Shown piece by piece: positions 41,652-46,844 of a stretch of 64,000 nt of DNA. Numbering within the stretch: position 1 is the stretch's first letter; each line of letters opens with the position of its first letter. The notes beneath the pieces were generated by a model, which saw only the letters and a list, made by a program, of their open reading frames with translations, was not told the origin of the DNA and did no database searches. Source of the stretch: an uncultured delta proteobacterium (GTDB lineage: Bacteria > Desulfobacterota > Syntrophia > Syntrophales > UBA2185); contig CAVSPA010000005.1 of assembly GCA_963729715.1 (NCBI GenBank), positions 576,001 through 640,000 of the forward strand. Direction: 5' to 3'. A program made the translations under genes and the position numbers.

Positions 41652-42162
41652 TGTCGCCACCGTTGTTGCCTCACTTGGAGCTTCCCTCGGCGTCAGCGTT
41701 ACTGACTTGATTGCCGCAGACCAGAAGGGCCCCATTCGCAATGAAGCGGTACAGCATAAAGATGCGGCGTCATGGGATTGGGGAAATATAAACGCAAACC
41801 AGTGGAAGCTCTCCGACCAGATCAAAACGCTCGAGGCATCTCAGTTCAAATTTTGGAACCAGGTCAAAGGGGAGTCACGGCAGGGAAAGATCAACATAAG
41901 GCAGTACAAGGAACTACAGGCAAACGAATACAAACTTGCAGACCAGATCAAGGATTTGCGGGCAAGCGATTACAATCTGTCGAACCAGTTTAAGTTCTGG
42001 CGGTCGAACATGCATAAGGGTGATCAGGCAGACCAGCTCAAAATCGACGGCCTCGAATCAAACGAACTGAAGATCGCAAACCAGCTCAAGATCCTGGAAG
42101 CCAACCAGCTCAAGATCTCAGAGCAGATGAAGATACTTCAGTCGAATCAGGATAAGCGCTGA
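41581..42162 (+). CDS. QxK-repeat protein with hydrophobic N-terminal leader/signal (possible RiPP-like precursor)
   Basis: ATG 41581 after GGAGG; AISVATVVASLGASLGVSV leader, then 14 Q-x-K units; followed by terminator. Confidence 0.75.
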   Translation: MKQKKRNEPPQKDPGKSPLRQAISVATVVASLGASLGVSVTDLIAADQKGPIRNEAVQHKDAASWDWGNINANQWKLSDQIKTLEASQFKFWNQVKGESRQGKINIRQYKELQANEYKLADQIKDLRASDYNLSNQFKFWRSNMHKGDQADQLKIDGLESNELKIANQLKILEANQLKISEQMKILQSNQDKR

Positions 42163-42194
42163 GTATAGATGAGGATACGTATCGGTAAGAAACA

Positions 42195-42225
42195 AAACCC
42201 CGCCCATCAAAAGTGGGCGGGGTTT
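42195..42225. terminator. Bidirectional intrinsic terminator
   Basis: AAACCCCGCCCA-TCAAAAG-TGGGCGGGGTTT between convergent genes. Confidence 0.85.
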
Positions 42226-42259
42226 CTAAAATTAATTTCTGTTGCGGCGTAAGGACCCA

Positions 42260-42964
42260 TCACTTCGGCTTCTTCCAGAATGGGCCGGTCTTACCGATTT
42301 CTTTCATGCCTTGAACCATCTCACGGGCGTATTCATGTATGTGTGACAGATAGTCCTTATCCATCCGCCGCCTGAAGAAAGGCCCGGAGAATAGTTTGCG
42401 TAATTGCTCCAGTGACAGGATGCCCTCGTCGGTGCCTTGGACAAAGGACTTCCAGTTGCGGACATGCTCTTCCGACCGGAAGAGATTCATCGTGCTTCAG
42501 GCATAGCCCGGATCTTCAAACCATTTCCAGAAGGGCACGGCTACATAGGCCGTGTATCCTGAGGCTTCGGCATTCAAAATGACCCCGTCCCGGATGACCA
42601 CACGGAGCGGCGCGCCGCAGTCCAAACAGGGGAAATCCACCGTCACCGCCTTGCCAGGGAATAGCCAGCAGACCGCCAGCGATTCGAATGCTCACTGGCC
42701 GAACCATTTCTGCTGACCGTCGATGGTGATCCGGTATTGGGTTGGAAGATTGTTGAAGGGAGCGAAGGAGACGATGTGGTCCGTGCGGGGATACAGCCAC
42801 GAAGGGATTCCCGAGGAGAACAGGTCGTGCATGACCTTCCGGCCTTCCTCAACGGGAAGCCCGAATTCTTGGGCAAGTTCCGTGTAAAAGGGCGCCTGCC
42901 CGGTTTCTACCATGCGTTTCATGATGATGTGAAACGCCTTCTCCAGCATTGGGGGTGCGCTCAT
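42260..42964 (-). CDS. MerB (organomercurial lyase)-fold protein with two selenocysteines (Sec91, Sec156)
   Basis: Three pieces join in one frame across TGA 42692-42694 and TGA 42497-42499 (234 aa): HTH-like N-term, PTQYRITIDGQQKWFGQ-U-AFESLAV, FPCLDCGAPLRV, PGYA-U-STMNLFRSEEH. Confidence 0.88.
42467..42484 (-). promoter_or_regulatory. SECIS for MerB-like Sec156
   Basis: CUCUUCC-GGUC-GGAAGAG perfect 7-bp stem; loop 19 nt after UGA. Confidence 0.8.
42659..42685 (-). promoter_or_regulatory. SECIS for MerB-like Sec91
   Basis: GAAU-C-GCUGGCG-GUC-UGCUGGC-U-AUUC; GGUC 17 nt after UGA, resembling the fdhF GCA-GGUC-UGC apex. Confidence 0.7.
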
Positions 42965-43021
42965 GGTATTTCCTCCTTTATAATTCTGTTTTTCAAATTC
43001 CCTATTCAGATGAAAGTCTAT

Positions 43022-43579
43022 CTACACGTCCTTCATAAACTCAATTGACGTCATACTTTTGAAAAGAGGATAAAGCGGGTTGTTGCGGTACAGGTTCAAT
43101 GTCGTTTCATGAATTTCCCTGGTGAAGGCGGCGCAGCAGTCTTCGAGGATATAGGCCTGGAAATCGTTAGACAAGGCGTCAAGGGCGGTTACGAGGACAC
43201 ACCAGTGCGTGCTTATGCCGCAGATTGCAACCGTGTCCACTCCGTGCAGTCTGAGAATCTGATCCATGTCCGTCTTGTAGAAGGCGCTGAACCTGCGCTT
43301 GGGACTGTAAATATCCGTCGGAGCCTGAATCAAGAGCTCCGTTACCTCCGCATCTGTTGTCCCGCGAATGGAGCGCTCTTTCATCTTTCCACCGAAGATG
43401 AAGTCTCCTTTCAAAAAACTGTCCATGGAAAAAATCACCGGGATGGACTTGCGGCGGGCAAATTCGGTAAGACGGTTGATATTTGGGCAGACGGCACGGG
43501 CAAGTGGGGTAATCGGAAAGCCCGGTTCAACTTCCAATGAGTCTTTAAGCATGTCGACGATAACAATTGCAGGTTTCAT
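43022..43579 (-). CDS. Isochorismatase/nicotinamidase-family cysteine hydrolase
   Basis: IVIVDM (Asp), KRRFSAFY (Lys), GISTHWCV (Cys) triad. Confidence 0.9.
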   Translation of the reverse strand: MKPAIVIVDMLKDSLEVEPGFPITPLARAVCPNINRLTEFARRKSIPVIFSMDSFLKGDFIFGGKMKERSIRGTTDAEVTELLIQAPTDIYSPKRRFSAFYKTDMDQILRLHGVDTVAICGISTHWCVLVTALDALSNDFQAYILEDCCAAFTREIHETTLNLYRNNPLYPLFKSMTSIEFMKDV

Positions 43580-45509: not shown

Positions 45510-46844
45510 TTACATCTTTCCCCTGAGAGACTGGGCCGCGATGTGGATGGCGTCCCAGGCGCCTCCGAAGGGCGGCGCGTATGGAAGATCAAGGTAGCCG
45601 ACCTCATCCACGGAGAGTCCTGCCCATAGGGCGACAGAAAGGCTGCTGATTCGTTGAACGGCCCCTTTCTCACCGATGCACTGCCCGCCGAGAAGTTTTC
45701 CCGTCTTCTTGTCTCCGACAAGTTTCACGCCCATCTTCTCCCCTTTAGCCATGGGACGGCCAACGGGAAGACCCCAGATCATGGTGCTCACCGGCTGGAA
45801 TCCATATTTTGCGGCTTCCTCCTCCGTAAGTCCGGTGGCAGCCACCTCCAGTTTGAATACCTTGAAGGCCTGAGCACCCACGACACCCGGAAACTCCGCC
45901 GGGTAACCGCCGATGTTTTGACCGGCAACACGGCCCTGCTTGTTGGCAACATCGCCGAGGGGAAAATAGACCCACCGGCCGGCGACTTTGTGAAATACCT
46001 CACAGCAGTCTCCCACTGCGTAAACCCCTTCCCGGGATGTCTTCTGCCGGAGATCCACCGTGATGGCGCCACTTTCCCCTAAGGCAATTCCCATGGATTC
46101 GGCAAGCGCGGCATTCCGCTTTGTTCCCACTCCCATCAGCACGAGATCGGCATCCAGCTCGCCGCCGCTGGTATGAAGATTCAACCTGTATTCCTTCCCT
46201 TTTTCAATCGATAGAGGCTTCGTCTCCGGAAGGAATTCCACCTGGTTCTTGGCCAGCTCTTCCACTATCATCTTCGTGAATTCGGCATCCCACCGTACGG
46301 CCGGCCGGGGCAGGATGTCCATGACCTTCACTTCAATTCCCAGGCTTCGGAGCGCCTCACACATCTCCATACCGATATAGCCCGCACCGATCAGAACCGC
46401 TTTCCTGCAGCTCTTTTCGTTCAGGTAGGATTTCATCTTCAAGGCGTCGCTCAAGTCTCTGAAGACATAGACGCCGTCCATGTCTTTGCCCGGAATATCC
46501 AGGCGGATCGCTTCGGCCCCTGTCGCCATGACCAGGAAGTCGTAAGGAAGACTCGTGCCGTCTGATAACGAGAGAGATCCCTTTTGAGGATCGACACTGT
46601 CCACGCGCGTCTTGATTTTTACGTCGATGCCCGTTTTCTTGAATTCTTCCGGCGTACGGATGACGAGCCTCTTTGACTCTTTGATTACATCACCGATGTA
46701 ATAAGGCATCGGTCAGGCCGCATAGGAAACAAAGTCACCCTTCTCAATCATCGTCACTTCCAGAGAAGGGTTTCTTCTTTTGGCCTCGGCAGCCGAAGAC
46801 GGGCCTGCCGCCCCGCCTCCCACTATAACCAGTTTTTGACCCAT
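45510..46844 (-). CDS. CoA-disulfide reductase/NADH oxidase-like flavoprotein, selenoprotein (Sec44)
   Basis: True start ATG 46844 (GGAGG RBS): MGQKLVIVGGGAAG...FVSYAA-U(TGA 46713-46715)-PMPYYIG; 444 aa. The ORF track version lacks the FAD-binding N-terminus. Confidence 0.92.
46684..46702 (-). promoter_or_regulatory. SECIS for flavoprotein Sec44
   Basis: AUUACAUC-GGU-GAUGUAAU perfect 8-bp stem; loop 18 nt after UGA. Confidence 0.8.

Follow-up and report, generated by a model that had tools for sequence, protein, structure and literature searches.

The stretch of DNA analysed here, called the window below, comprises 64,000 nucleotides (nt) from the genome of an uncultured delta proteobacterium of the Syntrophales lineage UBA2185 (assembly GCA_963729715.1, contig CAVSPA010000005.1, positions 576,001 to 640,000). 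On its minus strand it contains a single frame of 234 codons that has TGA at codons 91 and 156 and encodes a protein related to the alkylmercury lyase MerB (Table 1). The comparisons described below indicate that this frame is very probably a single expressed-type gene for a cytosolic MerB-fold selenoprotein of 234 residues, in which each of the two UGA codons would be recoded as selenocysteine (Sec, U) by its own SelB-type selenocysteine insertion sequence (SECIS). A first-pass annotation of the DNA had described the frame with its two TGA codons and a GGUC-capped hairpin after each of them, and had predicted that standard annotation would yield two short open reading frames (ORFs). All of this was confirmed, and the strand, which that annotation had left unstated, is the minus strand. 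Under translation table 11 the frame is split into ORFs of 90 and 76 amino acids (aa), and the plus-strand reading of the same interval contains many stops. The stop codon of the gene is itself a TGA, and it has no SECIS-like hairpin 3' of it.

The host genome (3.76 Mb in 19 contigs, 48.7% G+C) encodes the machinery for Sec incorporation, including a tRNA-Sec with anticodon TCA, SelB (a 643-aa frame with 62 bits on the SelB-wing_3 model) and SelA (522 bits). Homologs of the MerB-like protein were sought with six-frame searches that read through stops, in 41 related genomes and in 401 genomes sampled from the phylum. Matches came from fourteen of the related genomes, among them each of the 10 others in the genus, and the codons were TGA/TGA in each of the 20 matches that spanned both sites, paralogs at 43-56% identity among them; two of these 20 also contained a TAG or TAA. 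The phylum sample gave 44 matches of at least 41% identity (41-99%) in 39 genomes. UGA-1 was present in all 44 and both TGAs in 43, and 41 of the homologs had exactly two TGAs and no other stop. The remaining three were one with a third TGA that was read as its stop, one with an extra TAG, and one that has lost the second TGA and is discussed below. In an alignment of 39 full-length homologs, with identities to the query from 96% down to 43%, the mean column identity was 69% and conservation ran on past each TGA, from the first residue to the last, so that each in-frame UGA has conserved coding sequence on both flanks. The invariant columns include U91, E94, C113, L114, D115, C116, G117, U156 and S157.

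Cysteine was found at the Sec positions in more distant relatives: codon 91 encodes Cys in all 80 of the loci retained from a wider scan (see below), and two public proteins (P0036 and P0050) have Cys at both sites. Together with the TGA codons this is the classic pattern of a selenoprotein, which the first-pass annotation had suggested looking for. These two proteins are among 22 public records that were fetched from 120 listed. Fourteen of the 22 were full-length, with Trp at both sites in the other 12, and eight were proteins of about 155 aa that end at site 156, seven of them with Cys91. The names on the public records of the family, fragments included, are only 'hypothetical protein' or 'Alkylmercury lyase'. 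Metagenome DNA was used to examine loci related to one of the Trp/Trp records: all 21 loci spanning both sites were TGA/TGA and none had TGG, with TGA at site 91 in 23 of 23 loci covering it and at site 156 in 24 of 24. The Trp/Trp database proteins are therefore mistranslations of TGA as Trp. Co-occurrence with SelB was rejected as a test of Sec use, because SelB is found in 375 of the 401 phylum genomes and cannot discriminate; it is present in 38 of the 39 carrier genomes, and the exception (G143) is 85% complete.

Both UGA codons are followed by a stem-loop with G and U in the apical loop that is conserved and covaries across homologs. The upper stem of hairpin 1 (GAAU-C-GCUGGC / GGUCU / GCUGGC-U-AUUC) starts 11 nt after UGA-1 and the stem of hairpin 2 (CUCUUCC / GGUC / GGAAGAG) starts 12 nt after UGA-2. 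The 11-nt spacing and the GGUC-type loop presumably match the element of E. coli fdhF. No Rfam family matches either hairpin. The hairpins are judged to be beyond chance because of comparative evidence and not because of single-sequence thermodynamics. Hairpin 2 was paired in 98.1% of 784 cells from 112 distinct sequences, which included Cys91 relatives from other phyla. Both sides had changed in four of its seven pairs, none of 500 shuffles reached any of the observed measures, and controls in which the hairpin position was slid were 44-59% paired. In two loci (L126 and L131) hairpin 2 reads UUGUUCA/GGUC/UGAACAA, which amounts to three compensatory pairs, two of them achieved through synonymous codons for Arg (CGG to AGG) and Ser (UCG to UCU). 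For hairpin 1, 94.8% of 420 cells were paired in 42 distinct sequences with Sec at both sites (U/U). Two of its ten pairs had changed on both sides, a count reached by 56 of 500 shuffles, and its covariation score was reached by none of the 500, with slid controls 23-63% paired. Synonymous codon entropy, calculated from 29 homologs that share less than 90% identity, was 1.22 bits over the whole gene but dropped to 0.66-0.68 bits in codons 89-101 and to 0.27-0.39 bits in codons 157-169.

The relatives from other lineages in which codon 91 is TGC or TGT (76 distinct sequences) provide a natural control for hairpin 1. Its loop is variable in these sequences: the GU of the loop, which belongs to the Val98 codon, was present in all 42 U/U sequences and in 20 of the 76 Cys91 sequences, in which residue 98 is C, V, I, M, A, T or L. 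This indicates that the loop is constrained only where a UGA needs recoding. In two Cys91 relatives from Nitrospinota and Tectomicrobia metagenome-assembled genomes (MAGs; L054 and L056) the TGC codon is followed by the whole GCUGGC/GGUCU/GCUGGC hairpin, which could represent a recent replacement of Sec by Cys or a hairpin that pre-existed in the coding sequence.

Some observations count against reading the gene in this way. In minimum-free-energy folds of 61 nt, pairings other than the two hairpins were chosen (z -0.69 and -0.71); folded in isolation, hairpin 1 reached -10.5 kcal/mol (z -0.66) and hairpin 2 -9.6 kcal/mol (z -2.53). Since the hairpins were not singled out, single-sequence folding was dropped as uninformative. 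Hairpin 1 is still paired in 82% of cells when codon 91 encodes Cys (88% in the upper stem), which makes the Cys91 relatives only a partly clean negative control and indicates that part of the stem is a by-product of the conserved Leu-Ala...Trp-Leu codons. There are also irregular homologs. Of the three things that the first-pass annotation had named as speaking against it, one was the lack of a MerB-fold match, which is present (see below). The other two, residues other than Cys at the two sites and frameshifts or stops typical of a pseudogene, do not occur as a pattern. The residue at a TGA or Cys site was otherwise in few cases. A residue other than Cys or Sec was seen at site 156 in one of the 44 phylum homologs (G360, which has Val156 and a TAA in addition) and at site 91 in one of the eight shortened database proteins (P0031, with Ser91). 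As for pseudogene features, only three further matches suggest decay or error, two of them with an extra TAG or TAA (G350 and G015:C160) and one with a frameshift/TAG (G006).

The assignment of the protein to the MerB fold was supported by both sequence and structure comparison, as the first-pass annotation had anticipated. The Pfam model for MerB (PF03243) matched residues 72-190 on profile positions 3-119 of 126 with 66 bits (cutoff 27, E 4e-18), and a six-frame search of the host genome with the same model gave 49.4 bits, which passes the cutoff and is the sole PF03243 match in the genome. The NCBIfam models for SaoL (NF040728, 30.3 bits, cutoff 140) and MerB (NF009710, 29.1 bits, cutoff 193) fell below their thresholds, and no model in NCBIfam release 20 claims the protein; by these scores it is neither SaoL nor a canonical MerB. 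An AlphaFold2 model built on the 39-sequence alignment had a mean predicted local distance difference test (pLDDT) score of 92.7 and a predicted template modelling (pTM) score of 0.88. When this model was searched against the PDB with Foldseek, there were 11 matches with E ≤ 0.001, all of them MerB or MerB2 (E 3e-10 to 5e-7, TM 0.49-0.71), followed at ranks 12-47 by winged-helix regulators that matched the N-terminal part with E above 0.1. The protein is thus predicted to have the three-dimensional fold of MerB.

A phmmer search of PDB sequences returned MerB2 (5C17, E 3.7e-6) and then MerB (3F2G, 1S6L and others), and the resulting HMMER alignment reproduced one that had been made by eye, with UGA at the positions of both catalytic cysteines, Glu at that of the catalytic Asp and the motif PCLDCG in the region of Cys117 (Table 1). 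The residues at the positions of the canonical catalytic Cys96, Asp99 and Cys159 are therefore Sec, Glu and Sec, which are chemically analogous and not identical to them, and the position of MerB Cys160 is occupied by Ser157. Given these residue and fold equivalences, residues 91, 94 and 156 would be expected to cluster in one site. Glu94 is invariant in the 39-sequence alignment and is also Glu in all 80 Cys91 loci and in all six of the outgroup proteins described below; it is the most conserved feature of the family, and its carboxylate is one carbon further out than that of Asp99. One of 23 metagenome loci (L175, U/U) has Asp at position 94, as canonical MerB does. C113 is retained throughout the 80 Cys91 loci, in which residue 116 is C, S or G.

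A scan of one genome per GTDB species was carried out with patterns that have Cys at the Sec sites and is hence biased to Cys forms. It identified 89 relatives, of which 80 were kept. By their labels these belong to delta-proteobacterial MAGs, Desulfomonilia, Nitrospinota, Tectomicrobia, Dehalococcoidia/Chloroflexota, Rokubacteria/Methylomirabilota, a spirochaete and Acidimicrobiia, including the sponge-associated Poriferisodalis. All 78 loci that cover both sites are Cys91/Glu94/Sec156, the other two being cut short, and such Cys91/Sec156 (C/U) forms occur in Actinomycetota, Chloroflexota, Nitrospinota, Methylomirabilota/Rokubacteria, Myxococcota-labelled MAGs and Tectomicrobia. The phylum also contains stop-free MerB-like proteins (L155-L160, 25-35% identity), all six of which are Cys/Glu/Cys.

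A maximum-likelihood tree was inferred from 67 rows thinned to less than 80% identity, with sites 91 and 156 masked; it was rooted by midpoint or outgroup only, so no direction of change between Sec and Cys is claimed. The Sec family was separated from the Cys/Glu/Cys proteins by a long branch (98/95 support, length 1.05). Within the family the U/U and C/U rows interleave, and the U/U label requires seven changes, at least four of which are forced by well-supported branches. For example, the C/U rows L052 and L053 lie inside a U/U clade (100/97), and the U/U row L017 lies inside a C/U clade. The tree thus implies four or more switches between Sec and Cys at site 91, and site 156 is Sec everywhere except in the two Cys/Cys rows. 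These comparisons point to a separate MerB-fold selenoprotein family with Cys or Sec at site 91, Glu94 and Sec156, of which the gene in the window would represent the double-Sec state. Four genomes of the same genus or family hold more than one match to the MerB-like protein: three each in G001, G010 and G015, and four in G007. In G001, G007 and G015 there are diverged copies at 43-56% identity that have kept both TGAs, which suggests that substrates may have diversified within one genome. In G010 every match is about 90% identical, and contig-end fragments are among them.

The closest described counterpart among selenoproteins is SaoL, a MerB-like organometallic lyase of the SAO system (NF040728; Haft & Gwadz, bioRxiv 10.1101/2022.07.06.499078). 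Both proteins have the PF03243 fold, occur as selenoproteins in anaerobes and have Sec at the position aligned with Cys159, and for SaoL too the database entries are truncated at the TGA and an organometallic substrate has been proposed. SaoL differs in having one Sec, in a C-U dipeptide, and in keeping Cys where MerB has Cys96 and Asp where it has Asp99, whereas the present protein has the motif Y-A-U-S-T, a second Sec in place of Cys96 and Glu in place of Asp. SaoL is also encoded in a nine-gene SAO locus (the ABC transporter SaoX/B/P, SaoE, SaoC, SaoT and others), and no SAO neighbourhood is present here, in agreement with the earlier view that the two are distinct. The phrase 'two selenocysteine' in the preprint of Haft & Gwadz refers to the permease SaoP. 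In the text of the selenoprotein catalogues PMC9312934 (2022) and PMC13188914 (2026, 119 families), searched by term, the sole MerB entry is SaoL with one Sec. Full-text searches of the literature did not find a MerB selenoprotein with two Sec residues or of the Glu type.

The resemblance to MerB itself (plasmid R831b; PDB 3F0P, 3F0O, 1S6L) extends to the fold (Foldseek E about 1e-9, TM up to 0.71), a similar length, an N-terminal helical domain, and one-for-one correspondence of the two ligand positions, the acid and the structural Cys. The differences are an identity of about 20%, Sec for both Cys, Glu for Asp, no equivalent of Cys160, Gln90 and Ala155 for Trp95 and Phe158, about 30 extra C-terminal residues and no mer operon or MerA. 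MerB2 of Bacillus megaterium, the best PDB match by sequence and also by Foldseek (E 3.1e-10), is a natural variant at the Asp99 position, with Ser there and much reduced activity (PMC10114901); it has Cys and not Sec and lies in a mer context. The Cys/Glu/Cys proteins of the phylum likewise have a MerB core and Glu in the triad, and differ in having no TGA, in their greater length (open frames of 245-406 aa) and in their separation by the long branch described above.

The genes around the MerB-like gene offer a first view of its context (Table 1). Upstream on the same strand lie, in order, genes for an isochorismatase-type hydrolase, an HpaB-like protein, a small ORF, a CoADR-like selenoprotein, a C_GCAxxG_C_C protein and a PAS-LuxR regulator.

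Table 1. Features of the MerB-like selenoprotein gene and of other genes in the window (positions are those of the window)
Feature	Positions	Strand	Basis or remarks
MerB-like selenoprotein coding sequence	42260..42964	minus	ATG 42964-42962, stop TGA 42262-42260; 234 codons, open throughout with TGA read as U
UGA-1, Sec91, equivalent to MerB Cys96	42692..42694	minus	HMMER alignment to MerB PDB chains
Glu94 codon, at the position of the MerB proton donor Asp99	42683..42685	minus	HMMER alignment
Codons 113-116 (C-L-D-C), C113 equivalent to MerB Cys117	42617..42628	minus	HMMER alignment
UGA-2, Sec156, equivalent to MerB Cys159	42497..42499	minus	HMMER alignment
Shine-Dalgarno sequence AAAGGAGGA, 6 nt ahead of ATG	42971..42979	minus	read from sequence
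SECIS-1 (hairpin 1)	42659..42685	minus	4-bp lower stem, 1 mismatch, 6-bp upper stem, GGUCU loop
SECIS-2 (hairpin 2)	42467..42484	minus	7-bp stem, GGUC loop
Terminator-like G+C-rich inverted repeat, flanked by A/T runs	42194..42228	no strand	read from sequence
Convergent ORF, 206 aa	41542-42162	plus	
Isochorismatase-type hydrolase gene	43022-43579	minus	
HpaB / 4-hydroxybutyryl-CoA-dehydratase-family gene, 483 aa	43653-45104	minus	
CoADR-like pyridine-nucleotide-disulfide oxidoreductase gene, four genes upstream	45510-46844, TGA 46713-46715	minus	444 residues
Second HpaB / 4-hydroxybutyryl-CoA-dehydratase-family gene, 483 aa	53471-54922	plus	in Fe-ADH / acyl-CoA dehydrogenase / OsmC cluster

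The CoADR-like gene is a second selenoprotein candidate, with U at the position of the active-site Cys of Nox/CoA-disulfide reductases (VSYAA-U-PMPYY). Its best NCBIfam match, NF007123, scored 381 bits, below the cutoff of 458, and the hairpin after its UGA had a z of -2.61. Under table 11 it would be annotated as a 399-aa protein without the FAD-binding N-terminus. On the other side of the MerB-like gene, the inverted repeat lies between it and the convergent gene and could be used from both sides. An Rfam scan over 42100-43100 found nothing meaningful, with only sub-threshold chance matches on the repeat. The product of the convergent ORF resembles a coiled coil, with repeated heptads of the Q-L-K-I type; no Pfam or NCBIfam model matches it, and it is kept in a genus-mate at 86% identity.

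Conservation of the neighbours was assessed by tblastn of 20 window proteins against 20 U/U and 80 Cys91 loci. The window operon was rejected as a guide to function, as its members are conserved next to the gene only in two loci of the same genus. The context in other lineages was then described de novo from 144 crude ORFs around 19 U/U loci of other genera (the same-genus locus L151 being left out) and from the 50 nearest-neighbour ORFs of 26 Cys91 loci, after two long and probably spurious ORFs (L062:3484-7011 and L087:235-6783) had been dropped. An amidase (PF01425, 477-478 aa) adjoins the U/U gene on the same strand in four of the 19 loci (L134, L136, L137 and L140), upstream in two and downstream in two, with gaps of 27-76 nt. 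An Amidohydro_2 gene is near the U/U gene in three loci (L138, L139 and L142), and in one of these, L139, a Redoxin gene lies directly upstream. This recurring theme of amide hydrolases, which includes the isochorismatase-type hydrolase of the source genus, may be a hint to the substrate. No ABC transporter locus adjoins any of the 19 U/U loci. In one locus with a 49%-identical U/U protein (L149, G408:C29, 7489-11941) the order is DsrE, MerB-like, ArsR, Acr3-type SBF, S-adenosylmethionine methyltransferase and LMWPc/ArsC-type, and in one Cys91 relative (L057, 8081-9229) an Acr3-type gene is directly downstream. A link to organoarsenicals is possible for this one sub-branch, given the ars-like locus and the Acr3 neighbour.

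Elsewhere in the host genome, about 82 kb from the window, there is an hgcA-like gene (G000:C5, about 493.4-495.0 kb; L154 1090-2605). Its 391-aa product contains GINVWCAAGKGTF, and its C-terminal half is hydrophobic and membrane-like. The next gene encodes an hgcB-like ferredoxin with two clusters that ends in SSCC, and a small ORF (592-1071) lies upstream. Both the identification of this gene and the scan described next relied on what we take to be the HgcA motif. The source organism is probably a mercury methylator. An exact-pattern scan for the motif found it in 109 of the 401 phylum genomes: 18 of the 39 U/U carriers and 91 of the 362 non-carriers, in a set where related genomes are not independent.

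Libraries of RNA from wetland, peat, soil and sediment shared words with the gene only at 0.10 or less. Short contigs from relatives (at least 85% likeness) in these libraries cover 42243-42955. UGA-1 is bridged by three of them (X2 record 17, X1 record 6 and X10 record 11) and UGA-2 by another three (X3 records 20 and 21 and X10 record 9), and the difference rows listed for the contigs include no change at either TGA. As the contigs come from relatives and the libraries may contain DNA, this is a weak hint of transcription.

To our knowledge, no enzyme other than MerB is known to split the mercury-carbon bond, and MerB occurs chiefly in aerobes with mer operons. The organisms that make methylmercury are anaerobes. 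Selenolates are deprotonated at neutral pH and, compared with thiolates, are softer ligands that exchange faster. By analogy with MerB, the present protein may be a protonolytic lyase for a carbon-metal or carbon-metalloid bond, with an organomercurial as the leading substrate, a reading to which we give a probability of about 0.5. In MerB, R-Hg+ is bound by Cys96 and then by Cys159, Asp99 protonates the carbon, and the product Hg(II) remains bound by Asp99 and both thiolates until it passes to MerA or to thiols (PMC10114901). In the corresponding scheme for the selenoprotein, the selenolates of Sec91 and Sec156 would bind the metal of an R-metal substrate in turn and weaken the carbon-metal bond, the carboxylate of Glu94 would deliver a proton and release R-H, and the metal would stay on Sec91, Sec156 and Glu94 until thiols or a partner took it away. 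With selenolates as ligands, organomercurials such as methylmercury would be captured more readily when present in traces inside anoxic cells that are sulfidic and rich in thiols. Model selones that imitate the MerB site break C-Hg bonds, and selones react faster than their sulfur analogues (PMC10114901, PMC11639659). Protonolysis requires a carboxylate, which neither plain metal binding nor a redox pair would need, so that the invariance of the carboxylate in the family (Glu, once Asp) favours catalysis over mere binding. The first-pass annotation had put forward that such a Sec/Glu/Sec site may have chemistry other than Hg-C protonolysis or a higher activity on methylmercury.

There is also evidence that does not fit a lyase of this kind well. 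The residues flanking the two catalytic positions in the HMMER alignment, Gln90 and Ala155, are unlike those of MerB, and the substrate may therefore differ. The mer operon context with MerA that characterizes canonical MerB is lacking: no MerA was found above the cutoff in the host genome (best 344.5 bits, cutoff 454.45), and there are no mer genes among the window neighbours, the 19 U/U loci or the 26 Cys91 loci. Neither was a partner that recurs across lineages found among these U/U and Cys91 loci; gene context varies and names no substrate. The association with hgcA is modest, with an odds ratio of about 2.5 uncorrected for relatedness, and counts as a lead and not as a statistic. The release of Hg(II) from MerB in the absence of MerA is a recognised problem (PMC8261052), and a bis-selenolate would hold Hg tighter still, which makes turnover doubtful.

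These difficulties would be smaller if the Sec/Glu/Sec site captured Hg(II), Cu(I), As(III) or comparable soft ions stoichiometrically and the protein served as a buffer, chaperone or sensor domain without any cleavage, which we consider possible but improbable. Two selenolates would bind soft metals very tightly, and neither MerA nor a conserved metal-accepting partner is present to receive them; two loci adjoin Acr3-type efflux genes, and the weak similarity of the N-terminal part to winged-helix regulators would suit a sensor. The MerB site is known to bind other metals, and the D99S substitution gives a Cu-binding protein (PMC10114901; Haft & Gwadz preprint). However, the strict carboxylate at position 94, in the family and in the outgroup alike, is what would be expected for proton delivery, the costly double Sec would be unusual for a mere buffer, and the full MerB core is kept with high confidence.

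We also regard as unlikely that the MerB fold has been re-used in a redox enzyme, in which Sec91 and Sec156 would form a reversible diselenide (a selenenylsulfide in the Cys91 forms) and an organic sulfur or selenium compound, or an amide-linked metabolite, would be reduced or cleaved in place of a metal substrate. We know of no MerB-fold protein that is a redox enzyme, and this reading leaves both the invariant carboxylate and the exactly retained MerB ligand geometry unexplained. Most prokaryotic selenoproteins are redox enzymes (PMC9312934), and Cys and Sec swap freely at site 91 while the pocket residues are unlike those of MerB, all of which would suit such a function. The same can be said of the CoADR-like Sec gene and the C_GCAxxG_C_C gene in the window, the Redoxin gene of L139 and the amidase, Amidohydro_2 and isochorismatase-type hydrolase genes found beside the gene, but the redox neighbours in the window are conserved only within the genus, and no reductase recurs as a partner.

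The idea that both TGAs are ordinary stops in the untranslated remnant of a decaying MerB homolog, to which the fragments given by standard gene calling and public records and the few homologs with an extra TAG, TAA or frameshift might lend themselves, is effectively refuted by the comparative data, namely the retention of both TGAs in homologs down to 41% identity, nearly all without other stops, the protein conservation past each TGA, the compensatory changes in the hairpins and the Cys residues at both sites in relatives. A general change of code in which UGA is read as Trp, Gly or Cys, as the Trp residues in database translations might imply, has next to no chance of being correct, since TGA also serves as the stop of the gene, the neighbouring genes come out normal and full-length under table 11, the genome has the Sec machinery, SECIS-type hairpins lie at the right spacing, and the Trp/Trp records trace back to TGA.

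The protein is a candidate agent of organometal breakdown in oxygen-free habitats; the degradation of methylmercury by anaerobes is poorly understood (PMC10114901). Whatever the substrate, these comparisons define a widespread MerB-fold family with selenium at the predicted metal-binding site, one member of which resides in the same genome as an hgcAB-like pair. It would be a rare case in which the residues at both catalytic positions of one enzyme are Sec, each with its own SECIS, and the repeated switching between Sec and Cys at site 91, with site 156 staying Sec, provides a natural experiment on the benefit of selenium. As current annotation splits the gene or places Trp at its UGA codons, surveys of merB and of selenoproteomes miss the family. 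A more specific proposal, which we hold only tentatively and think less likely to be right than wrong by a wide measure, is that the family is the missing mer-independent enzyme of methylmercury degradation in anaerobes, a selenium-dependent reductive demethylase that works in company with HgcAB and without MerA. If this were true, the net amount of methylmercury in wetlands, sediments and paddy soils would depend in part on the family, the second Sec, at site 91, would be an adaptation of Thermodesulfobacteriota to a sulfidic, thiol-rich cytoplasm, and the supply of selenium would directly control the microbial turnover of methylmercury.

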